A stretch of 57,418 nucleotides of DNA from an uncultured Verrucomicrobiota bacterium (GTDB taxonomy: Bacteria; Verrucomicrobiota; Kiritimatiellia; RFP12; UBA3636). Every line of letters begins with the position of its first letter. Within the stretch, counting starts at the first letter, position 1. The translations under genes and the position numbers were made by a program. The DNA lies in contig CASFKR010000006.1 in assembly GCA_949295265.1 (NCBI GenBank), forward strand, positions 1-57,418, given 5' to 3'. Of this stretch, positions 1,874-21,149 are shown piece by piece. The notes below the pieces were generated by a model. That model worked only from the letters and a program-made list of their open reading frames with translations. It was not told the origin of the DNA and ran no database searches.

Positions 1874-1878
1874 GGGCG

Positions 1879-3387: not shown

Positions 3388-3515
3388 GAAAGAACCGAGG
3401 AATGACCAGGATGGCTTCTGCGACGGGGTTGGCAGGGGGCGGGCCGGAACCGGACCGCATCAGCAGGAAGAAAGGTGGACGGGGGCGACGGCAGAAGCCG
3501 ACAGGAACGGGGTTG

Positions 3516-4688
3516 TCAGTGGAGCCAGTTCGGGGAAAGACCCGGGACGATTTCCTCGACGGCGGGGGCGAGCTTCTTCATCTGGTTTTTCAGATTCTGG
3601 AGCGTCGGCGTATTGGGCACATCGTCCATTGAGAGCGGATTCTGCTTTTCCCATTCGCTCCACTTCCGGTACACGGGTTCGTAACGGTTGTTCATCGTCA
3701 CCTGCTCCCCGCGGAGTTTCTCCAGCTTGGTGCGGAGATTGGCGCGGAGATTGCGGTCGCTGATTTCCGTATCCGTCTTGCGGAACAGCTCCATCGTTTT
3801 GTTGATATCCGTCTGGAGGGCGTCGCGCTCCGCCTTGATTCTCCGGTATTCGGTCTCGTGGGGATTGCGATGGCGGGCCCGCATACGCTCGAACAGGTCG
3901 TTGCGCGTCTGTTCGTAGGTGCCGTAGGCTGTGCAGAAATCGATAAGGGCATCGCGCTGTTCGCGGTTGCTCTCGCTGTAGCGCACGCCTTCAAACAGGA
4001 CCATATCGTTCTCGTACACGTACGTGGGCGCCTGCGCCCACAGCCCGTTTTCGAGCGGATACACCGCATACACACGCCCGTGCGGCAGCATCTTGTCGTC
4101 CGCATAGGCGACGGGGGTGCCGCCCTTGATGACGCCGACGGCCGTGCCGTCCGCCGCCATGGAGAAGGAATTGGTCACCACGATGCCCCACGGATAGGGC
4201 GGCTCTTCATTCTGCGCGGCGCGCGGATCGGGCGGCAGTTCCTCCTCCACCACGACCACCGTCACATTGGTCACCACGGACGGCTTCGACGCCTCTTCCG
4301 GAGAAATCGCCTTTTTCGCGGCGGAAACCGCACTCGCCGCCATGGAGGCGAATTTTTCCGCGGCGGAACCGACCACCGATTCGGCGGGCCTCGCCGGTGC
4401 GGGTGCGGGAGGCTGCGGCGAAGCGGGAGCCTCTTCCGCCACCAGTCCGGGAACCGGGTGCGCCTCCGGCAGAGGTGCGGTATCCCGGGAAGCGTGATTC
4501 GTCGGGCCTTCGTCATCCATCGCCATCATCATTTCATTGGTGGATGCCGATGCGCCGGAAAGCCCGACAATCGCGGACAGAATCTTTGTCGCCTCCGGAG
4601 AAACCGAGTGGAGGACGGGCAAGCCGAACCAAATCAGAAGAAAGCCCGCAATGGCCACGATAAATGCGCGCAAAAGGAACTGTGCCAT
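3516..4688 (-). CDS. Hypothetical membrane-anchored protein: N-terminal TM helix, Ala/Pro-rich linker, C-terminal coiled-coil-like region
   Basis: 390-aa ORF with GC3-rich codon usage. N-terminus MAQFLLRAFIVAIAGFLLIWFGL. No family recognised. Confidence 0.6.
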   Translation of the reverse strand: MAQFLLRAFIVAIAGFLLIWFGLPVLHSVSPEATKILSAIVGLSGASASTNEMMMAMDDEGPTNHASRDTAPLPEAHPVPGLVAEEAPASPQPPAPAPARPAESVVGSAAEKFASMAASAVSAAKKAISPEEASKPSVVTNVTVVVVEEELPPDPRAAQNEEPPYPWGIVVTNSFSMAADGTAVGVIKGGTPVAYADDKMLPHGRVYAVYPLENGLWAQAPTYVYENDMVLFEGVRYSESNREQRDALIDFCTAYGTYEQTRNDLFERMRARHRNPHETEYRRIKAERDALQTDINKTMELFRKTDTEISDRNLRANLRTKLEKLRGEQVTMNNRYEPVYRKWSEWEKQNPLSMDDVPNTPTLQNLKNQMKKLAPAVEEIVPGLSPNWLH

Positions 4689-4963
4689 AACAAGCGTGGA
4701 GAAATAATATCAATCGAAATTCTGTCCGGCTGTCCAACCGGGAAGATGCCGGAGCCCGAAAAGCCCCTCCGGGAAGCCTCCAATCCGTAAAACCGGATTC
4801 ACGAAATCATCGGATAATTTCAGGAATTTGTCAAATGATAAACCCTCTCGCGCACGCTTTTCAGACCCTTTTCCGAATGGTGTCTCTGCCATGGTCGACG
4901 CCGCCGACTCCGGCGCCCCGAAACGGCCTCCGCCGGGGCGCCGGATGGTGGCACTTTCCGGCT

Positions 4964-5803
4964 TTATTGATAGACGCGAACGTACTCGATTTCGAAGCGG
5001 GCCGGGAAAATACCCGGGTCAATCCCCTTCTGTCCGCCCCAGGCGCCGCCGATGGCAAGGTTCAGCAGCAGATAATGAGGTTTGCGGAAGGGATACGGAG
5101 AAAACTCGCTCAAATCGCCCGTTTTCGTGTATTCCCCGGCCTTTTTCCCGTCGATAAACAGCCGGAGCGCCGAGGGTTCCCACTCCAGGACGTACGTCAC
5201 AAAACTGTCGAGGGCGGGCGGATGCACGAGCCGACAGCCGGGCGTCATAACATGCCGGACCGGGGCAAGACGCTTTCCCGCTGCCTTGCTCCTCCGTGCG
5301 GAGGGTTTCCCGCCGCCGTCCGGCTTCTGCCCCGGCCCGTGAAGCGTGAAATGGAGCACATCCGGCTCAAACCCAACGTATTCCATGATGTCGATTTCGC
5401 CGCACCGGGGCCAGCCGACCTCGCCGATATCTTCGCCCAGCATCCAGATGGCGGGCCAGACCCCGCGTCCGCCGGGAACGCGCGCCCGGATTTCGAACCG
5501 GCCATACGTCCAGGCATGCTTTCCAAGGGTCGTAATGGCCGCCGAGGTGCACAGCTCCGTTTCGCCGCCATGTTTGTAGGCATCCAAATGCGCCTCGAGG
5601 ATGAGACGTCCGCCCGATACGCGTGCATTTTTGCGGCGTTCCCGGGTGTAGTATTGGAGTTCCTGATTGCGGCAATACCCTTCCTCATAGGTCCAATTCG
5701 CCGGATCGGGCAACCCGGGCTTGTCGAATTCATCATGCCAGACGAGTTTCAGCCGCTTTCCGGTTGAGGAAAGCACGGTTTCGGGCGCGGGTGTCTTTTT
5801 CAT
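4964..5803 (-). CDS. Glycoside hydrolase family 16 (beta-glucanase / laminarinase-like)
   Basis: WPAIWMLG followed by the GEIDIMEYVG catalytic E-x-D-x-x-E signature. Start placed at the ATG at 5803, which is preceded by AGGAGA. The track ORF extends to 5869. No obvious signal peptide. Confidence 0.85.
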   Translation of the reverse strand: MKKTPAPETVLSSTGKRLKLVWHDEFDKPGLPDPANWTYEEGYCRNQELQYYTRERRKNARVSGGRLILEAHLDAYKHGGETELCTSAAITTLGKHAWTYGRFEIRARVPGGRGVWPAIWMLGEDIGEVGWPRCGEIDIMEYVGFEPDVLHFTLHGPGQKPDGGGKPSARRSKAAGKRLAPVRHVMTPGCRLVHPPALDSFVTYVLEWEPSALRLFIDGKKAGEYTKTGDLSEFSPYPFRKPHYLLLNLAIGGAWGGQKGIDPGIFPARFEIEYVRVYQ

Positions 5804-6080
5804 GCGGTTATCTCCTAAGAAACAGAGAGCGGCGATGCCTCCTGAAAATGGGCTCTCCGTTTTCCCCATTGTAGCGAGAGCGGCCGCACCCCTGCAACCC
5901 CATCCGTGTACAGGTTTATCCCGGTTTTTTTCGGGATAATTTATCCAGATTTCTTGAAAGAAGTCTCCTGTAGCCTCTTTTTAAGACTAGATACTCGTGA
6001 ATAGCCCGCCAATACTTTTTCACCCGAAAGTTCGGTAAAATAACTTTGCCGTCGGTCGCTCCAATGGTTGCGGTGACTTC

Positions 6081-6257
6081 GTTCAGGCGGCTCTGCCGCC
6101 GAGAAAAAGTTCTTATTTGACACCTTGGTCGGAACGTTAGTGGAGACTTCAAAACGGGGCTTCGCCCCTCCGTGTGGCTCAATTTTCTTAACTCATCGCG
6201 AGGCTGAGTTTCACAACCTTCCTCCGTGTGGCTCACAAATCCGGGATAAGCCTGGTG
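6081..6257 (+). repeat. 177-nt composite repeat; inverted copy at 45250-45420
   Basis: Aligns end to end with the reverse complement of 45250-45420, mostly identical by eye. Contains TTGACACCTTGGTCGGAACG, the hairpin GGGGCTTCGCCCC, two copies of CTCCGTGTGGCTCA, and CCGGGATAAGCCTGG. Confidence 0.9.
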
Positions 6258-6270
6258 TACAGCGGGCACA

Positions 6271-6407
6271 GCAAAGCCGCGCGAGGGATTTGTTTCCCGC
6301 AGAGACACAGAGGGAGGGAGAGGGAAAAAGGGAGCGAAGCCGCCGCCACGACCCCGGAGGGGGCGAACTGTCATGCAAAGGATGAGCGAAACGAGTCCTG
6401 AAGCAGG
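6271..6407 (+). repeat. Repeat modules TGTTTCCCGCAGAGACACAGAG (6290-6312) and GCGAAGCCGCCGCCACGACCC...GAACTGTCATGCAAAGGATGAGCG...CTGAAGCAGG (6331-6407)
   Basis: The first module recurs at 16442, 22016 and 50637. The second recurs at 41009-41098 and partly at 16464-16507. Confidence 0.85.
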
Positions 6408-6483
6408 AACAGATACAGAAGCCCTTCGGCCTGTTACAAAGGGAGGTCAGCGCAGAGAACATCAGGACAATCAGGTACAGATT

Positions 6484-6945
6484 TTACTCCTGGAATTTCC
6501 GATTCCAAAAACGGAATGAACAGGCAGTATACCAGTCTACGGAAAATTCACCCGTTGTCCGGTTTAAAATAGCAGCCTCCATCGTTATGTAACAGAAGAC
6601 GCCTTGCGGAGCGGACCATCCGTTTTCAAAGTTTTCAAAGGGGAATGAGATAAGTTTTGTTTCTCCGGGTTCCAGACAGTTGGTCGTCATAACGTAGGAA
6701 AGCCGTTGTAACAGAGCCCCTCTCTCATCGAAAGCATCCGTTCTTGCGGCCACGTCCAGACGGGCTGGAACAGCCAATGAATTGGTCAGAAAGACTGTCC
6801 AAAGAAATGCTTCTCCTTTTTCAATCGAATAGGGAGCGGTAAACGAACATCCGTTTTCAAGGGGCGCATGAACCAAAAGATCCGGCTGCCCAAGACAAAA
6901 TCCAACCGTGAAGAAAATGCAAGCAAGAACAGTCAGCCGTTTCAT
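6484..6945 (-). CDS. Secreted single-domain beta-barrel protein, type B, copy 2 (Transglut_C-like); paralog of 9293-9760
   Basis: Start at the internal Met gives MKRLTVLACIFFTVGFCLGQ, a Sec-type signal peptide. Core motif FTAPYSIEKGEAFLWTVFLTNSLAVPARLDV. Aligns along its length with the 155-aa ORF 9293-9760. AT-rich codon usage unlike the flanks. Confidence 0.8.
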   Translation of the reverse strand: MKRLTVLACIFFTVGFCLGQPDLLVHAPLENGCSFTAPYSIEKGEAFLWTVFLTNSLAVPARLDVAARTDAFDERGALLQRLSYVMTTNCLEPGETKLISFPFENFENGWSAPQGVFCYITMEAAILNRTTGEFSVDWYTACSFRFWNRKFQE

Positions 6946-7057
6946 AACAAATCTGAATTTCAGAAATCCATCAACCAAGGATGCGGCCACTTTCTGGTGC
7001 AGGGGCGTTGTTTTCTCAAACAATTTCATTTCCGCAGCCTGGCCGCCACATATTCTT

Positions 7058-7566
7058 TTATAGAGCCCCTGAATCGCCGTCTTCTGTCAGTGCGGGAAAA
7101 TCGTCCTGTGTAATCGGATTTCCCCGGAGATCCGGCACACGCCATTCGGGAAGAGGAACCACAGCCTGAAAGATTCTCAGGGAGCTGGCGCCTGTCGTCA
7201 GGTTGGTTGTAAAAATAAAAAAATCAATGCAGTCCGGAACCATATTGGACGGCATCCAGTCTTTGAGGGGAAAGACTATTTTTTAAAATCCCCGGCAGCA
7301 AGAAAATTCGTCGTGCATACTATGCCTGCTGAAAAAGAATATGTTGCCCAGGCATTTTTGCCGAGAACGTTGGCATAAATCATTCGTTGGACAGGAAAAT
7401 CCTCTTTGTTGGTTATCGTAAGAGCCCATTCATATGGAACTCCTTTTTCCATCACGCGTGGAGCAAAAAGCCGCACTGCTTCATCGACAACAACCTCACA
7501 GATTTGGACGCCGGATGAAGCAATTGAAAAGAACATCAACGCGATGAATGCGAGCCGTGTTTTCAT
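7058..7566 (-). pseudogene. Secreted beta-barrel protein, type A, copy 2, interrupted by a frameshift at a homopolymer; paralog of 9846-10340
   Basis: ORF 7276-7566 (MKTRLAFIALMFFSIASSG...EWALTITNKEDFPVQ) and ORF 7058-7255 (MPSNMVPDCIDFFIFTTNLTTG...ITQDDFP) match the N- and C-terminal halves of the 9846-10340 protein. Adding one base to the A6 run (plus-strand T6, 7279-7284) restores a single frame reading ..GDFKKIVFPLKDWMPSN.. Confidence 0.8.
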
Positions 7567-7850
7567 CTGTAAAACTCCTTTAAGGATATCCATTTGTTGG
7601 TGTCAGCAAGCTTTGTGTAAATGGAATCTCCGAGTGAATTAAGAACGGTTTTCACATGATTCGTAATCGCTCCATTGACGCTGAAATAATGAACTGGAGC
7701 GGAAACCGCGGCATGGAAATCATTCACATCATACACACAGTTTCCATTCGGTTTCACAGCCGAACGCGGAGCCGGTCCACATTGATATTTCCCGCCACTG
7801 AAAATTTGCGGTGTCCCAATTCGGGGCGCGGCGAACGACCAGCGCATTCG
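7563..7850 (-). pseudogene. Animal-type transglutaminase core, C-terminal remnant (fragment 3)
   Basis: RIGTPQIFSGGKYQCGPAPRSAVKPNG..YDVNDFHAAVSAPVHYFSVNG parallels 10337-10903. It lacks the Cys and His motifs, and the Asp position reads R-I-G-T-P-Q. It begins right after the stop of the upstream gene. Its stop overlaps the next start as ATGA. Confidence 0.75.
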
Positions 7851-7862
7851 TCCCGGTTAATT

Positions 7863-8876
7863 TTACAGTCCCGGACTCAACTGTGATTCCGTTGGAATAG
7901 AGTTTGTGCATTCGGCTACATCAATATCAAGCAGATTCCAATTGAAATTCGTATCTGTACGGTTGATAATATTGATGCTGAACTCCACACAATCGAATGG
8001 AGGCGGATTCGTAGGGTACCAGTTTTCAGCCACAGAAAACGGAAGCAGCCGGGACTCCCCGGGGGCGATATTGTTCGTTGAAATCACTGCGGCCAGACGT
8101 TTGTATGGTCGCCCATAATCATACTTGGCATCAACGCTGGAGCAGACATCCAGCCGAAGCGTTTTGGCTGTTGTATTCGTAATAAAGACACTCCACTCGA
8201 TTGGTTGAAAAATACTTACCCTTGAAGGAACTGTAAAATAACACCCATCGGCAAGCGGCATCACTTTCATTGGCGCATTTGTCTTATCCTTTAAAGAAAG
8301 CGTGTTATTGGAAGCCGCCCGAAGCATTTTTTGAATCAGCGCCGGATTGTCGCGAATCCGGAAGTTGTTCGTGGACGTAATGTAATAACCATCTATCTTT
8401 CCTGATATATGTTTTTTCGTTTCCAGATTAGTGATATCAGCAGTAAATCGGATATCTCTACCTTTCGGAACCCAATGATCCACTTTATAGGACATAACCC
8501 CGGATTCACCGGGAGCCAACAGATTCGTTGTTATATTGTTGTAAAGATTAGCGATTTCCACCCCATTATAGTACCTCCATCGGGCTGTGGTCCTGACAAT
8601 CAGATGAACGGGGAAAGAGAATTGATTGGTTATACCGATAGACCACTCTATCGGCTTCCCTTTGTAAACGATACCGGGTGAGGTGATTGAAAAACCATTG
8701 CCAAGATGCTGCTCACGTGGTCCCGATGACCATTTTACCATCTTAATCCGCCCCTTAACTGGGCTTCGGTTCGTTATACAATTAACAATTTCACTATTCG
8801 AAATTTCATGCGCTTCCTGTCCTTGACAGAAAGTCGCAAATATAAACCAGACAAATGCTAAAATAAAACTTTTCAT
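7863..8876 (-). CDS. Secreted two-domain beta-barrel protein (two tandem Transglut_C-like domains)
   Basis: Signal peptide MKSFILAFVWFIFATFCQGQ. Domain 1 has KGKPIEWSIGITNQFSFPVHLIV. Domain 2 has FQPIEWSVFITNTTAKTLRLDV ... IAPGESRLLPFSVAENWY. Confidence 0.8.
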   Translation of the reverse strand: MKSFILAFVWFIFATFCQGQEAHEISNSEIVNCITNRSPVKGRIKMVKWSSGPREQHLGNGFSITSPGIVYKGKPIEWSIGITNQFSFPVHLIVRTTARWRYYNGVEIANLYNNITTNLLAPGESGVMSYKVDHWVPKGRDIRFTADITNLETKKHISGKIDGYYITSTNNFRIRDNPALIQKMLRAASNNTLSLKDKTNAPMKVMPLADGCYFTVPSRVSIFQPIEWSVFITNTTAKTLRLDVCSSVDAKYDYGRPYKRLAAVISTNNIAPGESRLLPFSVAENWYPTNPPPFDCVEFSINIINRTDTNFNWNLLDIDVAECTNSIPTESQLSPGL

Positions 8877-9133
8877 GGATTAACTGAAGTTTCTTTATTT
8901 TTGTATTCGTCCGTTAAATCTACACCATAAATTGTCCGGGGATACTGAGTCATAATCAAAATTCCAGCCTCATGTTCACCGTTTGTTGATACACATTCAA
9001 CTCCGTTTTCATACTTGTAAACATTGCAGTTAACACCGTTTTTTACGAAACTCCGGGGAGCCGGTCCGCACTGAAACTTACCATCACTGAGTTCCTGTGG
9101 AGTTCCATCATGTGGCACATGGAAAATCTTAAT
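8873..9133 (-). pseudogene. Animal-type transglutaminase core remnant (fragment 2), 5-prime end replaced by a repeat module
   Basis: ..KIFHVPHDGTPQELSDGKFQCGPAPRSFVKNG.. The FHV and DGTPQ motifs are joined by an apparent internal deletion. The upstream reading frame runs into repeat module 9128-9191 and hits an in-frame stop at 9164-9166. The 3-prime end overlaps the next ATG as ATGA. Confidence 0.7.
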
Positions 9134-9191
9134 TTGACACCTTGGTTGGAACGTAGTGGAGATTCAAAACGGGGCTTCGCCATATGGCTCA
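9128..9191 (+). repeat. Hairpin repeat module (copy inside the island)
   Basis: CTTAATTTGACACCTTGGTTGGAACGTAGTGGAGATTCAAAACGGGGCTTCGCCATATGGCTCAA matches 6111-6181 and 331-396. Confidence 0.85.
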
Positions 9192-9292
9192 ATCATCCGG
9201 AAACTTCAATTGAAATTTTCCGGTCAAATTGAGGAAGACGCCCCGTTATTTGATTTTGTACGGAGGGTTCCCAAACCTTACCGTTACATGCC

Positions 9293-9760
9293 TTATCGAT
9301 TGCGGTCCTTGTCCGAAAACGGATTTGGGCGATAGAACGTACTGGCGGAATGCCAGTTAACAGAAAATTCTTCTGTCGTCCGGTTTAAGACGGCTGCTTC
9401 CATAGTCATATACGACATGCGACCGGACGGCGCCGTCCATCCCGGTTCTACTGAAATGAGAAGGCGTTTGAACGCTCCCGGAGCCAGATAATTTGTGGTC
9501 AACCCATACGAAAGCCGAAGAAGCCGTTCTCCGGAATCACCAATCAAATCCGTCCTTGTCAGGACATCCAGCCGGACAGGAATACTGGCTGAATTCGTTA
9601 GAGATACCGACCATTGAACAGGCATTCCTTTACGGACATCATAAGGAGCCGTCAAATAACTGCCGTTCCCAATTGTTGCGTGAACAACAACGTCCGAACG
9701 GCCAAAGCAGAAGACCGCACATGCAATCCAACACAAGGAAATAGCAAATAGAGTTTTCAC
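9293..9760 (-). CDS. Secreted single-domain beta-barrel protein, type B, copy 1 (Transglut_C-like)
   Basis: Signal peptide MKTLFAISLCWIACAVFCFG. Core motif LTAPYDVRKGMPVQWSVSLTNSASIPVRLDV. Paralog of 6484-6945. Confidence 0.8.
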   Translation of the reverse strand: MKTLFAISLCWIACAVFCFGRSDVVVHATIGNGSYLTAPYDVRKGMPVQWSVSLTNSASIPVRLDVLTRTDLIGDSGERLLRLSYGLTTNYLAPGAFKRLLISVEPGWTAPSGRMSYMTMEAAVLNRTTEEFSVNWHSASTFYRPNPFSDKDRNR

Positions 9761-9845
9761 AGCGGCAGGTTTTCGTATGGGGAACGCATGATTCTATCCG
9801 ACAGGAAGATGACATCCAAAACGAAACTTCACATAAAAAGGTCAA

Positions 9846-10340
9846 TCATTCTGGCGGAAAATCGTCTCGTGTGATGGGAGTTCCACGGGTATCCGGTATC
9901 GGCAGCCCTGGAATCGCCGGAAACGAAGTGCCGACGCAGAAAAGATTTCCAGCATGCGACCCTGTTGTCAGATTGGTTGTAAAGATCAAAAATTCAATGG
10001 TATCCGGGGCCCGGTTCGAGGGCATCCAATTCTCATCGAGAGGATTTCGTATCTGTAAACTTTTTCCTGGATCAAGATGATTCGTCACGCAAATATGGCC
10101 AACGGAAAAAGAATACTCACCCCAATAGTGTTTTCCGTTGGCAAAGGCCATAATCCCGATTTGAACAGGAAAATCATTTTTGTTTGTTACAGAAACAGAC
10201 CATTCGCAGGGGGTTCCAGCGGTCATGAAAAAAGGCGTAAACAGCCGGACTTCATCTCCGACCGTAATTTCACAGATTTTTCCCCCATGGCAAAAACCTG
10301 TAAACAGGAGCAACCAGACGATTGGGAAATGCTTTTTCAT
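9846..10340 (-). CDS. Secreted beta-barrel protein, type A, copy 1 (Transglut_C-like)
   Basis: Start placed at MKKHFPIVWLLLFTGFCHGG (ATG at 10338-10340), which overlaps the stop of the upstream transglutaminase fragment as ATGA. Core motif TAGTPCEWSVSVTNKNDFPVQIGI. Confidence 0.8.
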   Translation of the reverse strand: MKKHFPIVWLLLFTGFCHGGKICEITVGDEVRLFTPFFMTAGTPCEWSVSVTNKNDFPVQIGIMAFANGKHYWGEYSFSVGHICVTNHLDPGKSLQIRNPLDENWMPSNRAPDTIEFLIFTTNLTTGSHAGNLFCVGTSFPAIPGLPIPDTRGTPITRDDFPPE

Positions 10341-10903
10341 TGATTGTTCTCCAACAAAGAAAACCATTCATTTGTTCCTGGTTTCTTTGTAATGACATCC
10401 GTACCAAGACACCCGTATACGGTTTCTATCAAATTTGTATTTCCACCATTCACGCTAAAATACTGAACAGGTGCAGAAACTGCAGAAGAAATGAAATCCA
10501 CATCATACTGACCTCCTGCATTGTTTTTCACGAACGAATACGGAGCGGGTCCACATTGATATTTTCCTCCACTAAGAATCTGTGGTGTTCCATCGATAAT
10601 TTGCCAACCATCCCCATTTGTGACATCTGGCCGTGCCATCCAGATTTCCGTCCAGACATGAAAATTCCAGATTTTGTCATACGAATCACCTGTTAAAATC
10701 TGATTATTCGGGAACACGTATAAATCGATTTTTTTGTTTCCATTTTTGTCAACACCGGAATCAAAGCAAGTCACTGGACGGGCGGGCAGTCCGCAAGCTC
10801 TTGCCAGACTTGTTATCATTCCAGCAAAAACCCAGCACTGTCCATATTTGACGGGACTCTCTAAAGAAAGATACTGCTCAAAAATTTCGGCGCTACTTCC
10901 AAT
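10337..10903 (-). pseudogene. Animal-type transglutaminase catalytic core, 5-prime truncated; Cys-His-Asp motifs present but no usable start codon
   Basis: The open frame begins right after a TAA at 10904-10906 and reads IGSSAEIFEQYLSLESPVKYGQCWVFAGMITSLARACGLPARPVT...KIWNFHVWTEIWMARPD...GWQIIDGTPQILSGGKYQCGPAP. There is no ATG, GTG or TTG upstream of the Cys codon (10835-10837). The first Met (10819) lies after the catalytic Cys. The N-terminal sandwich domain and about half of the core are missing. Confidence 0.8.
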
Positions 10904-10914
10904 TTAGTGAAAAA

Positions 10915-10953
10915 GGCCTTGTTTGCCGAAGGAATCGCACCTGATTCGATGCG
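10915..10953 (+). repeat. Repeat module GGCCTTGnTTGCCGAAGnAAnCGCACCTGATTCGATGCG (second copy at 57324-57361)
   Basis: Near-identical 39-nt strings at both sites. This copy abuts the right edge of the AT-rich island. Confidence 0.8.
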
Positions 10954-11003
10954 CCTTTTCCTGAGGTCTACGCCCTTTTACCCGGCAGCAGCAGCGGACG
11001 AAG

Positions 11004-11927
11004 CTAGCGCGACACGGAGGCGGATGAAGGGTCCGGGGAGAAGGAGCGGAGGCGCGCTTCCACGGCGGCAATGACAGATTCCGGAGTACTGGCGCCCGCA
11101 GTGACACCGACACAGGAACAGCCGCGAAAATCATCGGGGCGGAGCTCATCGGCCGTTTCCACGACAATCGTCGGACGCTTCGCGCGGGCAAGCGATGCCA
11201 GGCGCATGGTGTTGGCGCTGGTGGCAGAACCGACGACGACAATGCAGTCGCTTTCGTCCGCCAACTCGCTCAAGGCGCGCTGCCGGGCTTGCGTGGCACC
11301 GCAGATGGTGTTGATGATGTGCGCCGCAGGCCAGCGGCGGCGGATGGCTTCCGCCACCGTGCCGAAAAGCGCTTCGTTTTGCGTCGTCTGCGAAACAAAG
11401 GTGACCATGGGCACGCCGTCGCCGTCCCTCGGCAAGGCGTCCTCAGAGAGGGCGTCGACCGCCTCCGGGGAATCGACAACGCACGCTCCCGGATTGGTGC
11501 AGCACCCCAAAATACCCACCACCTCGGCATGCTGGGGATCGCCCAGCACGAGAACATAGCGCCCGGCGGCAGCGGCTTCGGAGACGATTTTGTGGATGCG
11601 CGCCACATTGGGGCACGTCGCATCAATCAGGCGGAGTCCCAGCCGCTCCAGCCAGCGATACCGGGATGCCGGGATGCCGTGGGCGCGAATCAGGAGTGCG
11701 GCACCTTCGGGCAGCCCTGCGGGGTCATTGCAGACGCGCACGCCGACCGTTGCCAGGCGGGCAATCTCCTGATGGTTGTGAATCAGCGGGCCGTCCGTCC
11801 AGATACCCGGCTCCGGAGTTCCCGCCGAAGCCGCTTCTACAGCCGTCTGTGCGGCTTTTTCCGCCATCTCCACGGCGCGGCGGACGCCCCAGCAAAAGCC
11901 GGCGTTTTTGGCGCGGATGACCTTCAT
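11004..11927 (-). CDS. ispH: 4-hydroxy-3-methylbut-2-enyl diphosphate reductase
   Basis: MKVIRAKNAGFCWGVRRAV, ATCPNV and NTICGAT, the three conserved Cys contexts of IspH/LytB. Confidence 0.93.
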   Translation of the reverse strand: MKVIRAKNAGFCWGVRRAVEMAEKAAQTAVEAASAGTPEPGIWTDGPLIHNHQEIARLATVGVRVCNDPAGLPEGAALLIRAHGIPASRYRWLERLGLRLIDATCPNVARIHKIVSEAAAAGRYVLVLGDPQHAEVVGILGCCTNPGACVVDSPEAVDALSEDALPRDGDGVPMVTFVSQTTQNEALFGTVAEAIRRRWPAAHIINTICGATQARQRALSELADESDCIVVVGSATSANTMRLASLARAKRPTIVVETADELRPDDFRGCSCVGVTAGASTPESVIAAVEARLRSFSPDPSSASVSR

Positions 11928-13147
11928 CGTGCAGCGGCGGACCCGGATTTTCCGCGCAGGATGTCCTGCGCAAAAACCGTCGGCAGCTCCGTATCGCGGA
12001 ACCAGTAGATGGCGCCGGAAATGGTCAGCGTCTCCCCGAGAAAGGAGGTCAGTTGACCGGAATTGCCGTAGACGTACGCCACGGTTGTTTCGCGGTTGTC
12101 GCGGTTTTTGGTGACGAGCCGGAACTTGGTCGGATGAGAGCCGAAGAGCGGGGAAGACGCGAGGGTGCCGGAATAGACGCCGGGCTGCGCCTGTTCGGAC
12201 TGGCTGCGAAGGCGGGCGGCGGGGATTTTGGCGGGCCCGATGCGCTCATCGGAGGCGCGATTTCCGAGGAGCGTGCGGCGGGTCGGCGAGGAAAGGGACG
12301 CGGGATAGGCGGGGGTTGCCGTGGCGGACGACTCCATTTTGGAGGCGGTTTCGGTCTCGGGGGTGGCGGCGGGGATGGTGGCGACCGAGGTCACGGCATT
12401 CGTGGGCTCGGGCTGAGGTACCGCCGCTGTTTCGGACGCGGCGGGGGCCGCGGACGCGGCGGGGGGCGTCTCGGCCTTCGGGGCCGGCACGACGGAATCG
12501 TAGGTAAAGACAATGGGCTGCTCCGGCACGGGCGCGGGAGCGGGTGTTTCTGCAACGGGCGCGGCTTCCGGTGCGGGCGCTGCGGGTACCGCAGGCGCCG
12601 CAGGTGCTGCGGGTGCAGGTGCTGCGGGTGCTTCGGCGGCGGGTACGGCAGGAGCGGGAGCCGCGGGCGCCTCGACGGCGGGTGCGGCGGGCGTAGCAGA
12701 GCCCGGCTGCGCCGCTTCTTCCGGCGTCAGCACGCGCACATACAGATTGGTAATGAAAACGGAGCAGTTCGCGGGCGGCGCAATCTTGGTCCATTCCTTG
12801 AAGGTGCCGCGAATCTCCACGCGGTCCCCACGGACCAGCTGCCCGACGGCATGATAATTGAGCCCGGCACCGGCACGCACCTGCGCTTTGTCGGCAATGA
12901 CCAGATCATTGCGCAGCAACTCCGAAAAAATCCACACATCGCAGGTCGGCGGAATGCCCACCTTGACCCATACGTCAGTCGGCGCACCATGCAGCGTCAG
13001 CCGGTCATCGTACGAGACCTGCCCGACCACTTCGGAATGTCCATGAGGAGCCGCGCGCAGATTCACGCGATTGCCGGTGACCATGACGGTATCCGCCAGC
13101 GCCGCCTGAACCAGACAGAGAGAAAGAAAAAGGAGCGTTTTTTTCAT
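11924..13147 (-). CDS. Secreted protein with two SH3b-like domains, an Ala/Pro-rich linker and an unassigned C-terminal domain
   Basis: Signal peptide MKKTLLFLSLCLVQAALA. GNRVNLRAAPHGHSEVVGQV and KAQVRAGAGLNYHAVGQLVRGDRVEI are SH3b-like. Long PAAPA low-complexity stretch. Its stop overlaps the ispH start. Confidence 0.75.
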   Translation of the reverse strand: MKKTLLFLSLCLVQAALADTVMVTGNRVNLRAAPHGHSEVVGQVSYDDRLTLHGAPTDVWVKVGIPPTCDVWIFSELLRNDLVIADKAQVRAGAGLNYHAVGQLVRGDRVEIRGTFKEWTKIAPPANCSVFITNLYVRVLTPEEAAQPGSATPAAPAVEAPAAPAPAVPAAEAPAAPAPAAPAAPAVPAAPAPEAAPVAETPAPAPVPEQPIVFTYDSVVPAPKAETPPAASAAPAASETAAVPQPEPTNAVTSVATIPAATPETETASKMESSATATPAYPASLSSPTRRTLLGNRASDERIGPAKIPAARLRSQSEQAQPGVYSGTLASSPLFGSHPTKFRLVTKNRDNRETTVAYVYGNSGQLTSFLGETLTISGAIYWFRDTELPTVFAQDILRGKSGSAAAR

Positions 13148-13233
13148 GGCTCAAAGCCTATCATAAAAAGGACGCAAGACGCCAATCGGACTTTGAATGA
13201 AAAGAGGTTTTTGATAGACTCCCCGGAACACAT

Positions 13234-13761
13234 TTGCCCCCAACACCCATGAATGAACAAGCTCCTTTGGTCGGCCTCGTAATGGGGTCTGACTCCGACT
13301 GGCCCGTGGTTTCCAAAGCGCACGAAACGCTTCAGGAACTGGGCATCCCGCATGAAGTCCGCGTCATCTCCGCCCACCGGACGCCGGAAACGGCGCACGA
13401 ATATTCATCCACGGCGGAAAGCCGCGGGCTGAAGGTCATCCTCGCGGCGGCGGGCGGCGCGGCGCATCTGGCGGGCGTTCTGGCGGCTTCGACCATCCTG
13501 CCGGTTGTCGGCATCCCGGTGGCGGGCGGCGCGCTCAATGGTCTGGATGCGCTGCTGGCGACGGTGCAGATGCCTTCGGGCATCCCGGTGGCGACGGTCG
13601 CGCTGTCGTCTTCCGGCCCCGTGAACGCCGCCCTGCTGGCCGCGCAGATGCTCGCGCTTTCCGATGCGGACCTGGCCGCAAAACTGCGGGCCCGCAAGCA
13701 GAAACTCGCGGAAAAAGTTGCCGCAGCCGACGAAAAGCTGCAGAACTCGCTCCAGGGCTGA
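13234..13761 (+). CDS. purE: N5-carboxyaminoimidazole ribonucleotide mutase
   Basis: [14 protein letters not shown] ... VISAHRTPE ... AGGAAHLAG family motifs. The start could be the Met at 13249. Confidence 0.93.
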
Positions 13762-13794
13762 ACCCCGGCTTTCTCCCCCTCCCCTTTCAGACAC

Positions 13795-13819
13795 GCCTGC
13801 CTTCAGGCTTTTCTTTTTT
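13795..13819 (+). terminator. Candidate intrinsic terminator after purE
   Basis: GCCTG-CCTT-CAGGC hairpin followed by TTTTCTTTTTT. Confidence 0.5.
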
Positions 13820-13848
13820 GAGGCGACTCATTCAGTCGTGTACCGCCC

Positions 13849-15144
13849 ATGATTCGCGTCCGTTTTGCTCCCTCTCCCACCGGCAACGTCCATATCGGCA
13901 ACATCCGTGCCGCCATCTTCAACTGGCTCTATGCCCGCCACACCGGCGGCAAGTTCCTGTTGCGCATTGAAGACACGGATCTGCAGCGCTCGACGCCGGA
14001 AGCCATCCAAAAGGTGCTCGACGCCATGCAATGGCTGGGGCTCGACTACGATGAAGAGGCGGTCTACCAGACGCACAACCGCCCCGACCACGAAGCGGCG
14101 GTGGAGAAGCTCCTCGCCACGGGGCATGCCTACCGCGCCAAAAAGGGCGAAGGCGGCGAATGCGTCCTCTTCCGGATGCCCACGGAGGGCACCGTGGAGT
14201 TCGACGACCTCGTCAAGGGGCACATGCGCAAAAAAGCCGAGGATTTGCAGGACTTCGTGATTGTCCGCTCGGACGGCTCGCCGGTTTTCCACCTGGCCAA
14301 TGTGGTGGACGACATCAAGCAGGGCATCACGCACGTCATCCGCGGCGATGACCATGTGGAGAACACCTTCAAGCACATCCAAATCTTCAAGGCGCTGGGC
14401 GCGCCCGTGCCCGTGTACGCGCACCTGCCGATGATTGTCAACGCGCAGGGCAAGCCGTATTCGAAGCGCGACGGCGCGGCCTTCATCGGCGAATTCAAGG
14501 AGCAGGGTTTCCTGCCGGAAACGCTCTTCAACTTCCTGCTGCTGCTCGGCTGGGCGCCGGGGGATGACCGCGAGATCATGACGCGCGAAGAGATGATTGA
14601 AGCCTTCTCGCTGGAGCGCTGCAAATCGAGTCCCTCGCGGTTCGACATGAAGAAGCTCCTCTGGATGAACGGCGAATACATTGCGCACATGCCGCGGGAA
14701 GCGTTCCGCGCCTTCTTCGCCGGACGCCTGGCGGAGGCGGGGCTCCCGCCGCAACCGCTGGCCTGCACGCTCGATGAACTGATTCCCTGCATCCAGATCC
14801 GCACGAAGACGCTCAACGACATCCCGAAGAACTGCGCCTTTTTCTTCACCGATGACGTCGCCTACGATCCGGCGGCCGTCGAAAAGCGGTTGCACAAGCC
14901 GGAGGTTCCGGCGCGGCTGCTCGCCGTGGCGGAAGCCTTCGAAAAACTCCCGGAATTCACGGAAGCGGCAACGGAGGAGGTCATCCGCGCCATGGCGGCT
15001 GAACTCGGCGGCATGGGACCGCTCGTCCACCCCGTCCGCGTCGCCGTCTCCGGCGTCATGGAGGGTCCCGGCCTCTTCGAGATGCTCGCGCTGCTCGGGC
15101 GCGACCGCGTCCTCGCGCGTCTGCGCAAAGCCGCCACGCTCTGA
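13849..15144 (+). CDS. gltX: Glutamate--tRNA ligase
   Basis: RVRFAPSPTGNVHIGNIR (HIGH region), LLRIEDTD, and KPYSKRDG (KMSKS-like). Confidence 0.93.
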   Translation: MIRVRFAPSPTGNVHIGNIRAAIFNWLYARHTGGKFLLRIEDTDLQRSTPEAIQKVLDAMQWLGLDYDEEAVYQTHNRPDHEAAVEKLLATGHAYRAKKGEGGECVLFRMPTEGTVEFDDLVKGHMRKKAEDLQDFVIVRSDGSPVFHLANVVDDIKQGITHVIRGDDHVENTFKHIQIFKALGAPVPVYAHLPMIVNAQGKPYSKRDGAAFIGEFKEQGFLPETLFNFLLLLGWAPGDDREIMTREEMIEAFSLERCKSSPSRFDMKKLLWMNGEYIAHMPREAFRAFFAGRLAEAGLPPQPLACTLDELIPCIQIRTKTLNDIPKNCAFFFTDDVAYDPAAVEKRLHKPEVPARLLAVAEAFEKLPEFTEAATEEVIRAMAAELGGMGPLVHPVRVAVSGVMEGPGLFEMLALLGRDRVLARLRKAATL

Positions 15145-15263
15145 CCCCCGCGCCCGGGCGGAATCCATTTCATTCGGTAACAGAAACGGGGGGAACCGCC
15201 ACAACTGTGCCACCCCCGTGCCCCTAAAAAAACGCCACACCCGTGGCCGACATTTGATTCGTC

Positions 15264-16322
15264 ATGTATACGGCAAAAGTAATTGGTGCCACCGGTTATG
15301 GTGGCATCGGCATCATCGAACTGCTCCTCCGCCATCCGGAGGTCAAACTCCAGACGCTGGTCGCCAAGGAAAGTGCCGGAACGACGCTCTCCTCGCTCTA
15401 TCCGCACCTGCTCGGCTTCTGCGACATGCCCGTCGTCGACCCGGATTCCGAGGCGGCGCAGGAACCGGCGGACATCGTCTTTTTCTCGACGCCGGACCGC
15501 GTCGGCATGTATGGCGCCCGCGCCGAACTCGAGCGCGGCGCAAAAGTCATCGACTACTCCGGCGATTTCCGCGCCAACACCGTCGAGGACTACGCGGAAT
15601 ACGCGCGCCGCATCGGCAAAGACCCGGTGCACGCCTCGCCCGATCTGCTCCCGGAATCCGTCTACGGCGCCGCGGAACTGCACCGCGCCGATCTCACCCC
15701 GGCGCGGCGCCTCGTCGGCAACCCCGGCTGCTTCGCGATTTCCTGCATCCTCGGGCTCGCGCCCGCCGCCGCCGCGAAAGCCTTCCGCGCCAACTCCGTC
15801 ATCTGCGACTGCAAATCCGGCATTTCCGGCGCCGGTAAAAAAACCGCCGCCGCGCACCACTACCCGAACCGCTACGACATGATGAATGCATACCGGCTTT
15901 CCGGGCACCAGCATGTGTGCGAAATCGAGCGCGAACTCGGCAAACTGGCCGGGGCCCCCGTAACGGTCACCTTCACGGCGCAGGTCGTCCCCGTCTGCCG
16001 CGGCATCATGTCGTGCCTCTATGCGGATTTGCTGGAGCCGAAGACCGAGGAGCAGATGCTCGAAATCTACCGGGACTTCTACAAAGACTCACCTTTCATC
16101 CGCGTCTTCCCCTCGACGGCATCCATCGGCTCGATGCATGTTCGCGGCACGAATTACGCAAATCTGGTCGTCTCCGTCGATCCCCGCACGAACCGGCTGC
16201 GGGTTGTCTCCTACATCGACAACCTGATGAAGGGTCAGGCCGGGTCGGCCTGCCAGGCCATGAACCTGATTCTGGGGCTCCCGGAAACCATGGCGCTGGA
16301 TCATCCCGGCTTCTACCCGTAA
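15264..16322 (+). CDS. argC: N-acetyl-gamma-glutamyl-phosphate reductase
   Basis: KVIGATGYGGIGIIELLLRHPEV with the active-site context GNPGCFAISCILGLAP. Confidence 0.92.
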   Translation: MYTAKVIGATGYGGIGIIELLLRHPEVKLQTLVAKESAGTTLSSLYPHLLGFCDMPVVDPDSEAAQEPADIVFFSTPDRVGMYGARAELERGAKVIDYSGDFRANTVEDYAEYARRIGKDPVHASPDLLPESVYGAAELHRADLTPARRLVGNPGCFAISCILGLAPAAAAKAFRANSVICDCKSGISGAGKKTAAAHHYPNRYDMMNAYRLSGHQHVCEIERELGKLAGAPVTVTFTAQVVPVCRGIMSCLYADLLEPKTEEQMLEIYRDFYKDSPFIRVFPSTASIGSMHVRGTNYANLVVSVDPRTNRLRVVSYIDNLMKGQAGSACQAMNLILGLPETMALDHPGFYP

Positions 16323-16357
16323 GGCAGCGGAGGCGGAGCCCTCCGCCTGAAGCCTTT

Positions 16358-16418
16358 CACAAAACAGCATTCGCCTTTTCGCATTTTCCATGCGGAAAGG
16401 CGAATGTTCTGTTTTGTG
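16358..16418. repeat. Long imperfect inverted repeat / hairpin (arms about 27 nt, loop TTTCC)
   Basis: CACAAAACAGCATTCGCCTTTTCGCAT-TTTCC-ATGCGGAAAGGCGAATGTTCTGTTTTGTG, lying 36 nt downstream of the argC stop. Confidence 0.75.
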
Positions 16419-16441
16419 GCAACGGAAGCCCATGGGAAGGT

Positions 16442-16655
16442 TGTTTCCCGCAGAGACACAGAGCAAAGCCGCCGGAAGGAACCGCCGCCACGACCCTCGA
16501 AGGGGGGCACGTCGGCGGCTTCGTTTCGCCGGCTTCGCCCGCCCTCAGTGTGGGCGGGCGACTCGTCAGCCGCCGGCTTAGGCCGGTCGGTCTAACGCCG
16601 GCCGGCAGACGGCAACCGCCGCCCGCCCGTGTGGCTCAAAAATCCGGAACAACCC
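16442..16655 (+). repeat. Mosaic intergenic repeat region R5
   Basis: TGTTTCCCGCAGAGACACAGAG, then CAAAGCCGCCGGAAGGAACCGCCGCCACGACCC (compare 41015-41045), ending in CCGTGTGGCTCAAAAATCCGGAA. Confidence 0.8.
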
Positions 16656-16661
16656 GGAATG

Positions 16662-16701
16662 GGAAAAGAGAGCCCGGTCAGGCACGAGGCCTGGCCGGGC
16701 T
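16662..16701 (-). terminator. Intrinsic terminator after adhE
   Basis: On the minus strand, AGCCCGGCCAGGC-CTCGT-GCCTGACCGGGCT followed by CTCTTTTCC. Confidence 0.6.
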
Positions 16702-16731
16702 GTGTTCAGGGCAACTGCCTGAGCGGACGGC

Positions 16732-19404
16732 TTATTTGCCGTAGTAGCACTTGAGCAGGATGTCCTTGATTTCCGAGATCAGCGGGTAGCGCGGGTTGGC
16801 ACCCGTGCACTGGTCGTCGAACGCCTTGGTGGCAAGCTCGTCGAGCTGATCGAGGAAGACCTTCTCCGTGACGCCCTTGGCATCGAGCCATTCCTTGAGG
16901 GTCTTGGGGATGTTGCAGAGCGTCTTGAGCTCCTCGATCTTGCCGATGAGGGCTTCCACGAGCTCGTCGTCATTCTTGCCGGTCAGGCCGACATAGCGGG
17001 CGACGTTGGCGTAGTCGGCCTTCGCATTCGGGAAGTGGTACTGCGGGAAGGTGCCCTGCTTCGTGGGCTTGTCCGTCGCGTTGAAGCGGATGACTTCGCA
17101 GATGAGCAGCGCGTTGGCCAGGCCGTGCGGCACGTGGTACATGCCGCCGAGCTTGTGGGCGATCGAGTGGCAGAGACCGAGGAACGCATTGGCGAAGGCC
17201 ATGCCGGCCATGGCGGCGGCGTTGAACATGTGCTCGCGGGCCTCTTCGTCCATCGGACCATTCGTGTAGCAGCGCGGCAGGTACTCAAAGATGAGGCGGG
17301 TGGCCTCATTGGCGAGCGCGTTGTTGTAGTCCGACGCCATGACGGAGACGCGGGATTCGAGCGCGTGGGTGAGCGCGTCGATACCGGAGATGGCGGTGAG
17401 GCCCTTGGGCAGCTTCATGACCATTTCGGTGTCGATGATGGCCATGTTCGGCGTCAGCGCATAGTCCGTGACCGGGTACTTGGCCTGCGTATCGGCGTCC
17501 GTGATGACCGCGAACGGCGTGACTTCCGAGCCGGTACCGGAGGTGGTGGGCACGCAGACGAGCATCGCCTTCTTGCCGAGGTCGGGCACCTTGACGATAC
17601 GCTTGCGGATGTCGAGGAAGCGGCCGGCGATGTCCTCGAACTTGATCTGCGGCTGCTCGTACATGAGCCACATGATCTTGGCGCAGTCCATCGGGGAGCC
17701 GCCGCCGACGGCGATGATGACATCGGCGTCGAACGACTTGAGCTGGGAGAGACCCACCCGGGCCGTCTGGATGGTCGGGTCCGGCAGCACGTCTGCGAAC
17801 ACGTGGCAGACGATGCCCATGCTCTCGAGTTTGCGGATCATCGGCGCCATGATGCCGGAATTGTAGAGGAAGTGGTCCGTGACGATGAAGGCGCGCTTCT
17901 TGCCCTCGAGGTCACCCAGCGCGGTGCACAGGCAGCCGTATTTGAAGTAAATCTTTTGGGGGACACGGAACCAGAGCATGTTCTCTCTCCGTTTGGCGAT
18001 ATTCTTGATGTTGACCAGGTTTTTGGGGCCGACGTTCTCACTGACGTAGTTTCCGCCCCAGCTGCCGCAACCGAGCGTCAGCGAAGGAGGCAGGGCGAAG
18101 TTGTAGAGATCGCCGATGCCGCCCTGGGAAGCGGGGGTGTTGATGAGCACGCGCGAGGCGAGCACATCGTGCCCGAACTTGCGGATCCGCTCTTCGTTCT
18201 GCGTGTTCGTGTAGAGAACCGCCGTGTGGCCGAGGCCGCCGTAGGCCAGCAACGCCTTCGCATTCTCGACCGCCTGTTCGTAGGTGTCGACCTTGTACAT
18301 CGCCAGCGTGGGCGAAAGTTTTTCGCGGGAGAACGGGACCTCCGGACCGATGCCGGAAACCTCGCCGATGAGCACCTTCGTACCCTCCGGCACCTTGATG
18401 CCCGCCATTTCCGCAATCGTCATCGCCGTCTGGCCCACGATGGCCGGATTGATGCCGCCGTTCGGAAGCTGGATGAGGTCGCCGACCTTCTTGAGCTCCG
18501 TCTTGTTCAGCACATAGCCGCCGCGGTAGACGAATTCGTCACGGACCTGGTCGTAGATGTTCGCGAGCACCGTCACGCTCTGCTCCGAAGCGCAAATCAT
18601 GCCGTTGTCGAAGGTCTTCGACATCAGGATGGAGGAAACCGCCATCTTGATGTCCGCCGTATCATCGATGATGACCGGGTCGTTGCCGGGTCCGACGCCG
18701 ACGGCGGGGTTGCCGGAGGAGTAGGCCGCCTTGACCATGCCGGGGCCGCCGGTCGCCAGAATCAGCGCCGTATCCTGGTGCTTCATCAAGTACGCGGAAA
18801 GTTCAATCGACGGATGCTCGATCCAAGCGATGATATCCTCGGGAGCGCCCGCCTTGACCGCTGCATCGAGGCAGATCTTGGCCGCGGCGATGGTGCACTT
18901 GGCGGCGCGGGGGTGCGGCGAGAAGATAATCGCATTGCGCGTCTTGAGCGCGATGAGCGACTTGAAAATCGCCGTCGAGGTCGGGTTCGTCGTCGGAACA
19001 ATGCCGGCGAGAATGCCGCGGGGTTCGGCGACCTTGATCAGGCCGAACGCCTCGTCCTCTTCGATGATGCCGCACGTTTTGTCGTGCAGGTACTTGTTGC
19101 AGATATATTCCGAGGCAAAGTGGTTTTTGATGACTTTGTCCTCGACGACGCCCATGCCCGTTTCCTCAACGGCCATTTGCGCCAGCGGGATGCGCTGCTC
19201 GGCGGCAGCGAGTGCGGCCGCCTGGAAAATGCGGTCCACCTGCTCCTGCGTGTAGTTGGCAAACTTCTGCTGCGCGGCCTTGACGCGCTTGATGAGAGCC
19301 TCCAGTTCAGCTTGATCGCGGGCGGCTTTCTCCGCCTTCTCCTTCGCGATGCACTCAGCCTCCTCGGGGGTCAATTCGGGCTTTTTCTCTGTTTTGGTGG
19401 CCAT
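16732..19404 (-). CDS. adhE: Bifunctional acetaldehyde-CoA / alcohol dehydrogenase
   Basis: 890-aa ORF. The N-terminal half is aldehyde-dehydrogenase-like and the C-terminal half is an iron-type ADH ([10 protein letters not shown], HxxxH context [16 protein letters not shown]). Confidence 0.95.
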
Positions 19405-19475
19405 GTTCGGTCTCCTGAACGCTGATTTCTCTTTGATATTGATACAAAAAGGTTAAATCCGTTTGATGGCTCGCA

Positions 19476-21144: not shown

Positions 21145-21149
21145 TTCGC

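Follow-up and report, generated by a model that had tools for sequence, protein, structure and literature searches.

Orphan toxin cassettes are exemplified by the CdiA-CT/CdiI and Rhs orphan modules, orphan immunity gene arrays by the acquired interbacterial defence islands of Bacteroidales, and silent-cassette antigenic variation by pilE/pilS and vlsE. Polymorphic toxins are marked by a conserved N-terminal part, variable C-terminal domains, a cognate downstream gene, standalone or truncated cassettes, and heads of foreign composition; a transglutaminase class (Tox-TGase) is among the toxins listed, and the Sec signal-peptide route among the trafficking modes (Zhang et al. 2012, PMC3482391). 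Loci of this type, with orphan cassettes and transglutaminase-fold toxin domains, are an already known kind. Here we describe a transglutaminase gene fragment (fragment A, positions 10337–10903, minus strand) in a stretch of 57,418 nucleotides (nt) of contig CASFKR010000006.1 (hereafter the window), from an uncultured bacterium of the Kiritimatiellia (Verrucomicrobiota; assembly GCA_949295265.1). Our analysis favors, with a probability of roughly 60%, the view that fragment A is the orphaned 3′ remnant of a C-terminal head that is exchanged within a Kiritimatiellia family of polymorphic secreted proteins.

Fragment A and its truncation

The frame of fragment A follows a minus-strand TAA at 10906–10904 and runs from 10903 to a TGA at 10339–10337 (188 codons plus the stop); its translation from the minus strand begins IGSSAEIFEQYLSLESPVKYGQCWVFAGM. 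The first codon is ATT, and none of the 22 codons ahead of the catalytic Cys is ATG, GTG, or TTG; an initial annotation, made from the letters alone, had counted about 21 such codons and had rightly placed the first Met (10819–10817) downstream of the Cys. The Cys codon (TGC at 10837–10835, minus strand) lies within YGQCWVFAG, the His (10660–10658) within WNFHVW, and the Asp (10594–10592) within IDGTPQ. The Cys-His-Asp triad is therefore complete, as had been noted from its motifs, and its coordinates were verified by alignment to factor XIII-A, where the equivalents are C314, H373, and D396. The 188 residues match human factor XIII-A 295–472 (E = 8.7e-38), TGM2, TGM3, and a fish transglutaminase (E = 1e-30 to 4e-36), and Pfam Transglut_core (PF01841; 8e-13); the resemblance to animal-type transglutaminases is far beyond chance.

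The C terminus is natural (..NNQ and the stop), and the fragment begins 22 residues ahead of the catalytic Cys. It lacks a start codon, a signal peptide, a stalk, the Transglut_N domain, and the first ~98 residues of the core, residues that P0002, P0295, and P0025 do have, and its homology to full-length relatives stops within one or two codons of the TAA at 10906–10904. Only the equivalents of factor XIII-A 295–472 are left of the catalytic core; Transglut_N is absent from the whole window by Pfam; and the polypeptide ends where the core ends, the barrel-like domain being encoded by a separate signal-peptide gene. Because it has no start codon before the Cys and no signal peptide, and is missing ~98 core residues, copy A would yield no exported, active enzyme. 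Gene callers predict a 160-amino-acid (aa) "transglutaminase domain protein" from the Met that follows the Cys; this product lacks the catalytic Cys and would be catalytically dead, which annotators should bear in mind at this locus. Taken by itself, fragment A is a defunct piece of a gene.

The truncation is not an error of assembly at 10904, since the junction of ispH with fragment A recurs in at least eight assemblies. The sequence across 10700–11100 is identical in two ENA assemblies of different samples, and the order ispH, 160-aa open reading frame (ORF), and partner gene X is found in six further contigs from other samples, four from ENA and two from Logan (L023 and L024, built with an independent assembler).

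Between the ispH stop and fragment A lies a hairpin-containing module (10915–10954, minus strand). The repeat reported at this junction is thus real but short, at 40 nt; it recurs at 57323–57362, upstream of secA, with 92% identity, and once more 70 nt upstream of the ATG of the full-length transglutaminase gene P0305 (locus L025). A variant of the module adjoins a different transglutaminase remnant in a second haplotype (haplotype II, described below). The module was not found in transglutaminase loci of other species, and the fold of the 100-nt intergenic region at the junction is no better than that of shuffled sequences (z = -0.09). The module may belong to the upstream region of transglutaminase genes, with deletions that repeatedly began immediately after it; alternatively, its edge may be a hot spot of recombination. 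That it precedes a stalk gene within the window was rejected, the 1030-aa ORF beside the second copy being SecA, and an integron-like or Xer-site interpretation was dropped, there being no integrase nearby and only a loose resemblance to dif.

The last 94 nt of the window (57325–57418) are 100% identical to positions 4–97 of L025. Here both contigs terminate, and their divergence begins precisely at the boundary of the 40-nt module; the next gene in the window is secA (54080–57172, minus strand). The shared stretch reflects either a repeat of more than 94 nt or a rearrangement between strains. A second family of dispersed repeats (35–60 nt, 84–95% identity) occurs at 120–196, 22213–22273, 40888–40948, and 45447–45507 in the window and at 4975–5050 in L025. 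Short repeats common to the two suggest that they derive from the same or a very close genome, a link based on the identical 94-nt end, these repeats, and co-occurrence in one sample.

Full-length relatives and the variable head

The closest proteins to fragment A comprise 10 matches among 5.8 billion sequences, most of which end at contig ends; the only named one is from Kiritimatiellae, and the family is assigned to Kiritimatiellia on the basis of the source names of its relatives. The joined metagenome loci L011/L010 carry, in a single frame, a signal peptide (MASFLLRLAICAAVPAAMA), ~80 residues, Transglut_N, and a core ending in ..DLTGEYK; a signal-peptide partner gene follows. An exhaustive HMMER search with P0008 placed long proteins at the top, with the transglutaminase part at the extreme C terminus: P0020 (1156 aa, transglutaminase part 799–1121), P0021 (1235 aa), P0025 (1285 aa), P0031 (1266 aa), and P0029 (3511 aa, transglutaminase part 3154–3476). 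Pfam recognizes Transglut_N and Transglut_core in P0020, P0021, P0024, P0025, and others, and TSP3 repeats in some stalks; it never finds Transglut_C in these long proteins.

Intact relatives of 1150–1370 aa accordingly consist of a signal peptide, a long stalk, Transglut_N, and the core. P0305, encoded in the same sample as a window-type locus, has 1367 aa and the signal peptide MKRRIQLLSLAAVFCAAVVSASP; the partner encoded next downstream is 159 aa long and contains a lipobox-like LAGC. Sec signal peptides were also read in P0173, P0188, P0204, P0035, and the L011 protein. Some 1,000 or more residues precede the Cys in the full-length bacterial genes. The initial annotation had gauged the loss by the more than 250 residues that animal enzymes have there; the loss is real, but that yardstick understated it. 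Pattern scans returned only one locus in genomes and three in metagenomes. Four proteins considered as further truncated genes (P0003, P0004, P0286, and P0293) were rejected as artefacts of contig ends or of start calls at an internal Met.

The stalk is conserved and the head is not. Alleles from the same or related communities (P0025/P0305, L013, and L006) share 85–100% protein identity through the stalk and Transglut_N to the stretch FNPWS..DSVY, past which identity in the core is ~45%; in DNA, L006 and L013 pass from 97% to 90% identity and then to patches of ~80%. The variable region thus starts ~98 residues upstream of the start of fragment A. The first ~380 residues of the P0020 stalk have more than 100 protein matches of 830–1250 aa (43–53% identity), most of them without a transglutaminase domain; the few that are named all come from Kiritimatiellae. 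Three stalk matches that were read (P0169, P0173, and P0204) carry signal peptides and HExxH metallopeptidase heads. Tandem arrangements of different heads also occur: a metallopeptidase tail and a 235-aa signal-peptide gene precede the transglutaminase gene in L011; an ORF with a PAD domain (PF03068, 1.3e-18), overlapped by a 233-aa signal-peptide gene, lies directly behind a transglutaminase/partner pair in L007 (1442–3333); and a truncated transglutaminase lies behind another head/partner pair in L008.

Two side observations concern these heads. The PAD domain of L007 is of the animal/cyanobacterial type and is a second "animal-like" protein-modifying enzyme in such an array. P0169 (1136 aa, metallopeptidase head; L016 8001–12831, GCA_018396375.1, and L017) has an N-terminal YidD fusion; its gene is flanked by rnpA and yidC, and two small genes that overlap each other (236 and 238 aa) come after it.

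Base composition changes at the same boundary. In L015 and L018 the stalk has 62–70% GC and the transglutaminase head plus partner 47–53%, and in L025 a stalk of 55–61% GC gives way to a head and partner of 41–52%. The composition switch at 10904, which had been correctly observed (45.9% GC against 62–63% in the flanks), is therefore a property of the head cassette everywhere and not of the truncation. A truncated module also occurs in another Kiritimatiellia metagenome-assembled genome (JBJEVW010000264.1, 55% GC; L009 7744–8495), where a 97-aa transglutaminase tail with its own ATG (MADSANGWQVVDGTPQ...) is overlapped by a 153-aa signal-peptide partner and adjoins a Mur-ligase-like gene; it is truncated at the same point as two further fragments in the window.

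The island, its partner genes, and haplotypes

Fragment A is located at the proximal end of a low-GC island (~5940–10914) bounded by ispH (LYTB; 11004–11927, minus strand), a high-GC housekeeping gene directly upstream, and by a GH16 glycoside hydrolase gene (4964–5869, minus strand); ispH, the GH16 gene, and the island genes all lie on the minus strand. The island holds three 5′-truncated transglutaminase tails (A, B, and C), each followed by a signal-peptide beta-sandwich partner gene, and a stop/start overlap (ATGA) joins tail to partner in two of the three pairs. Partner gene X (9846–10340, minus strand, 164 aa) has a signal peptide and a Transglut_C-like beta-sandwich, and its ATG overlaps the TGA of fragment A; gene Y (9293–9760, minus strand, 155 aa, GTG start), also with a signal peptide, belongs to the same partner family. 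A 57-nt piece of a dispersed repeat (9127–9181, 93% identical to 6111–6166) divides unit A-X-Y from fragment B (8873–9109, minus strand), which begins at the catalytic Asp (DGTPQ), is ~96% identical to the tails of the intact B-type proteins P0002 (293 aa) and P0295 (503 aa), and has a 42–45-nt gap at 9019–9022, where assemblies disagree. The next gene (7863–8876, minus strand), whose start overlaps the B stop, encodes a 337-aa partner that combines a signal peptide with two domains of the partner family. Fragment C (7563–7847, minus strand) is a 94-aa ORF (MRWSFAAPRI followed by GTPQ...) that begins one codon past the position of the catalytic Asp and shares 73% DNA identity with A across their common part. 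It precedes X′, a frameshifted paralogue of X (7058–7593, minus strand; ORFs 7593–7276 and 7255–7058, with a change in repeat spacing from 2774 to 2770 nt), and Y′, a partner-family paralogue of Y (6484–6945, minus strand). As B and C begin only at or after the catalytic Asp, A does retain the most complete core of the three.

At the distal edge is a dispersed repeat (5911–6254) with inverted arms at 5911–5928 and 6237–6254 and copies at 45250–45434 and 330–397. Members of this family are ~190–340 nt long and resemble miniature inverted-repeat transposable elements; the arms contain CAGG(C/T)TTATCCCGG, internal TGAGCCACACGGAGG repeats are present, and no Rfam match was obtained. No stalk or acceptor gene lies within the 57-kb window, no recombinase or integrase within the island, and no Rfam or tRNA match anywhere in the window; a terminator and promoter scan of the island gave no excess over shuffled background and nothing at the junction. 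Upstream of ispH, an SH3_3-domain protein (11924–13147) with an Ala/Pro-rich low-complexity middle varies in length among strains (396, 397, or 407 aa) and holds most of the local single-nucleotide polymorphisms (SNPs).

All the island partners (X, Y, X′, Y′, and each half of the 337-aa protein) form one family, with a signal peptide followed by a beta-sandwich. Pfam finds nothing significant in the window partners, and a sequence profile of the family has no match in the PDB. They can be tied to Transglut_C because partners of relatives match PF00927 and align with the window profile: in L014 the P0006 partner, a signal-peptide protein with two barrel domains, matches at 1.7e-12, that of P0020 (L015) matches at 1.4e-4, and hhalign pairs the window-family profile with the L014 partner at 90% probability (E = 1.7e-6). 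An AlphaFold (AF2) model of X (pLDDT 74) is an Ig-like sandwich whose best query-normalised TM-scores, 0.50–0.56 (root-mean-square deviation ~3 Å over ~118 columns), are to factor XIII and TG3 chains, with comparable E-values for arrestins and GH2 sandwiches. Judged from sequence, then, bacteria of this family encode the transglutaminase barrel as a separate protein, predicted from its signal peptide to be exported. The partner family is rare (nine matches among 5.8 billion proteins).

Populations contain more than one arrangement of these parts. Haplotype II (L026–L033, at least seven samples) reads ispH, module variant, a 66-aa B remnant (FDTDFVRSEV...), the 337-aa gene, and a 94-aa tail in which A-type sequence takes over from a C-type junction at GTPQ. 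X, Y, the repeat, and a mosaic tail of 49 aa follow; beyond this come X′, in contigs reaching that far, and Y′ (in L026). L022 resembles the window on the A side, with a 49-aa tail of three sources replacing the B-337-C segment and no 337-aa gene. In L006 a stalk leads into an intact B-type core, and the 337-aa gene is followed by a hybrid of C junction and A tail (99.5% identical to window 10592–10402) that is cut by an insertion sequence (IS); P0295 is an uninterrupted B-type protein.

Three Logan contigs end at 10917–10924 because the window arrangement (haplotype I) and haplotype II diverge at the module. At 9019–9022, within ~10 nt of the start of the haplotype II B remnant, four assemblies differ by 0, +30, +42, and +81 nt, the last including a 39-nt tandem duplication; the disagreement probably reflects assembly trouble from mixed haplotypes. 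A similar duplication of ~34 nt breaks the transglutaminase frame in L013. Compared with L001, the island and distal flank of the window (1088–11750) are 100% identical except for the 9019–9022 indel, and the proximal flank (11750–21951) is ~1% different; across eleven contigs, SNP density in the island is far below that in ispH. Low SNP density in the island is compatible with its recent spread or with chimeric strain assembly.

Origin of the fragment and comparison with known systems

Intact genes of the family encode a Sec signal peptide, then a stalk of ~700–1,000 aa in which some members carry TSP3 repeats, followed by a Transglut_N sandwich and a factor XIII-like core ending in ..EYK; the next gene, usually overlapping at ATGA, encodes a signal-peptide protein related to the C-terminal beta-barrel of transglutaminases. 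Head and partner would form a low-GC module swapped between near-identical stalks. Recombination in the best-conserved parts of the core and beside the 40-nt module that follows ispH probably built the island, with its three modules bearing 5′-truncated heads, and is probably still rearranging it. Fragment A would most probably be a dead, orphaned leftover; its use as a donor cassette is possible. The initial annotation had offered a dead relic or a silent orphan-toxin cassette, each of them partly right: the analogy holds as to kind, given the stalk/head pattern, cognate genes, low-GC heads, and mosaics, but this copy is not a complete cassette. Neither finding that it had named as refuting was obtained, the junction being no assembly error and related full-length genes being present.

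Several results weigh against an orphaned exchangeable head. Fragment A is not a whole cassette, because the variable region starts ~98 residues upstream of it, and no full-length A-type allele at 90% identity or above was found among ~15 billion proteins. Of the fetched full-length genes, L025 has no high-identity A-type DNA tract and L013 a single 95-nt match at 76%. In the stalks, Pfam finds no RHS, TPS, LXG, PAAR, or PT-HINT domain and no other domain known for toxin delivery or as a pre-toxin module; only TSP3 repeats and a signal peptide are recognised. The partners give no sign of purifying selection at the available resolution (seven changes in the 337-aa gene and too few SNPs in the island), and X′ carries its frameshift. 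The data are short-read metagenome assemblies of mixed haplotypes, and as assemblies disagree at 9019–9022, the arrangement of the window downstream of Y could be partly chimeric.

Some of the same facts would be expected if the island were simply the rotting remains of one horizontally acquired array of transglutaminase operons, with nothing in it under selection, partners included, and with open frames that merely reflect youth. The frameshift in X′, the substitutions in the 337-aa gene (six non-synonymous against one synonymous between the window and L006), deletion variants missing whole units, the IS in L006, and the very low SNP density of the island, which suggests recent spread, can all be read in this way. 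Decay of a single acquisition is harder to reconcile with the four partner ORFs (153–337 aa, with signal peptides) still intact in the island, with truncated modules on more than 20 contigs from many samples, or with the tail-plus-partner unit that has its own ATG in a different context in another Kiritimatiellia genome (L009), and we regard it as unlikely.

Nor need any conflict system be involved: stalk, Transglut_N, and core could form, with an exported barrel subunit, a secreted two-part transglutaminase acting on the bacterium's own surface or matrix or on host substrates, with head variation arising from phage or host immune pressure and the island holding leftover alleles. Homology of the partner to the enzyme's own C-terminal domain, Sec signal peptides on both proteins, and the lack of any known toxin-trafficking domain would fit such an enzyme. 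Against it stand the unrelated (metallopeptidase) heads borne by the same stalk, each followed by its own unrelated small signal-peptide gene, the arrays of heterologous head/partner pairs (L007, L008, and L011), and the sharp breaks in identity at the stalk/head boundary and in GC in L015 and L018; a two-part enzyme of this sort appears doubtful.

Rather improbable is a working silent cassette, in which fragment A would be kept as a donor and copied or crossed into an expressed stalk-transglutaminase gene elsewhere in the genome (e.g., the P0305 locus), generating new head/partner combinations in the manner of orphan CdiA-CT or Rhs modules or pilS cassettes. Its 188-codon frame is still open, recombinants are joined at the conserved GTPQ..QCGPA stretch (L006, L022, and haplotype II), and P0305, whose full-length gene has a copy of the 40-nt module ahead of it, comes from a sample that also contains a window-type locus. 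Such a donor, however, would be short of the first ~98 residues of the variable region, and the window contains no acceptor; what the fragment shares with known acceptors is limited to short conserved motifs. In the A-type cluster (90% identity) every member is of 160 aa or less, the tail clusters spanning 54–160 aa. With no A-type tract in L013 or L025, donor activity of fragment A is only a possibility.

A contig mis-join as the source of both the stop at 10904 and the missing 5′ part is rejected for that junction as scarcely credible: although assemblies disagree elsewhere in the island (9019–9022), three Logan contigs stop near the module, and the window and L025 both end inside their shared 94-nt stretch, the junction region is identical in independent assemblies, six contigs from two sources span ispH, fragment A, and X, and a second real haplotype explains the contig stops.

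With fragment A taken as the orphaned tail of an exchangeable head, further suggestions can be made about the family. Its mode of action may be that of a polymorphic toxin, the separately encoded barrel being a candidate inhibitor or immunity factor for its own head. What may still matter in the island, and be kept for protection, are the partner genes that remain intact, possibly expressed by read-through from ispH, and the transglutaminase tails could serve as recombination substrates. A bolder form, tentative and itself improbable, holds that a factor XIII-like transglutaminase (Transglut_N plus core) is an exchangeable weapon head in Kiritimatiellia, that the enzyme's own C-terminal barrel is kept as a separately exported inhibitor or immunity protein, and that the island is an array of orphan immunity genes in which recombination continues to be seeded by the toxin tails.

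The literature searched contained nothing specific on bacterial animal-type or Kiritimatiellia transglutaminases, nor on a head made up of Transglut_N and a factor XIII-like core, on the enzyme's barrel as a separate partner with a signal peptide, on recombination within the catalytic core, or on the Kiritimatiellia stalk family. What emerges is a rare, lineage-restricted family in which an animal-type transglutaminase is the variable C-terminal head of large secreted proteins, the same stalk taking metallopeptidase and possibly PAD heads, and in which natural populations carry several structural haplotypes produced by recombination inside the enzyme core. It offers a system for asking what role a factor XIII-like enzyme has in bacterial conflict or surface biology, whether a barrel can inhibit in trans, and in which direction genes have moved between animals and bacteria.

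Like the cassettes of pilE/pilS and vlsE, the island copies are promoterless and 5′-truncated, have short conserved stretches in common, and give mosaic recombinants; unlike them, they have no linked expression site, carry their own cognate downstream genes, and number only three. The island resembles orphan immunity arrays in its intact small signal-peptide partners without a working toxin gene, its foreign composition, and its variability among strains, and differs in retaining a toxin-gene tail before each partner and in having no recombinase or integrase.

At the level of sequence, the family displays the hallmarks of polymorphic toxins (PMC3482391). It shares with them a long conserved N-terminal part, a sharp break, and a variable C-terminal catalytic domain; a small, putatively cognate gene directly downstream, known here from adjacency and overlap; arrays of 5′-truncated head/partner modules that start at conserved motifs (A, B, and C; L006, L007, L008, and L009); and foreign composition with IS elements nearby. 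In contrast to the Tox-TGase of that survey, an effector class of type III secretion systems and RTX proteins (PMC3482391), the head here is a complete animal-type module, Transglut_N with a factor XIII-like core, and its partner is homologous to the enzyme's own C-terminal barrel; RHS, filamentous-haemagglutinin, LXG, and PAAR modules are lacking, and the main gene is missing from the window.

With the animal transglutaminases (factor XIII-A and TGM1–7) the bacterial proteins share the motifs YGQCWVFAG, WNFHVW, and DGTPQ, the Cys-His-Asp triad, an upstream Transglut_N in relatives, and Transglut_C-like domains encoded next door. They differ in the ~700–1,000-aa stalk before Transglut_N and in a polypeptide that stops at the end of the core, the barrel or barrels forming a separate signal-peptide gene; copy A itself spans only the equivalents of factor XIII residues 295 to ~480. 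If the head is indeed a weapon and the barrel its immunity protein, the auto-inhibitory barrels of animal transglutaminases and the bacterial partners would be two states of a single toxin-immunity pair, which animals have as a fusion and bacteria as separate proteins; phylogeny and biochemistry could then test where the animal family originated or whether bacteria captured it.

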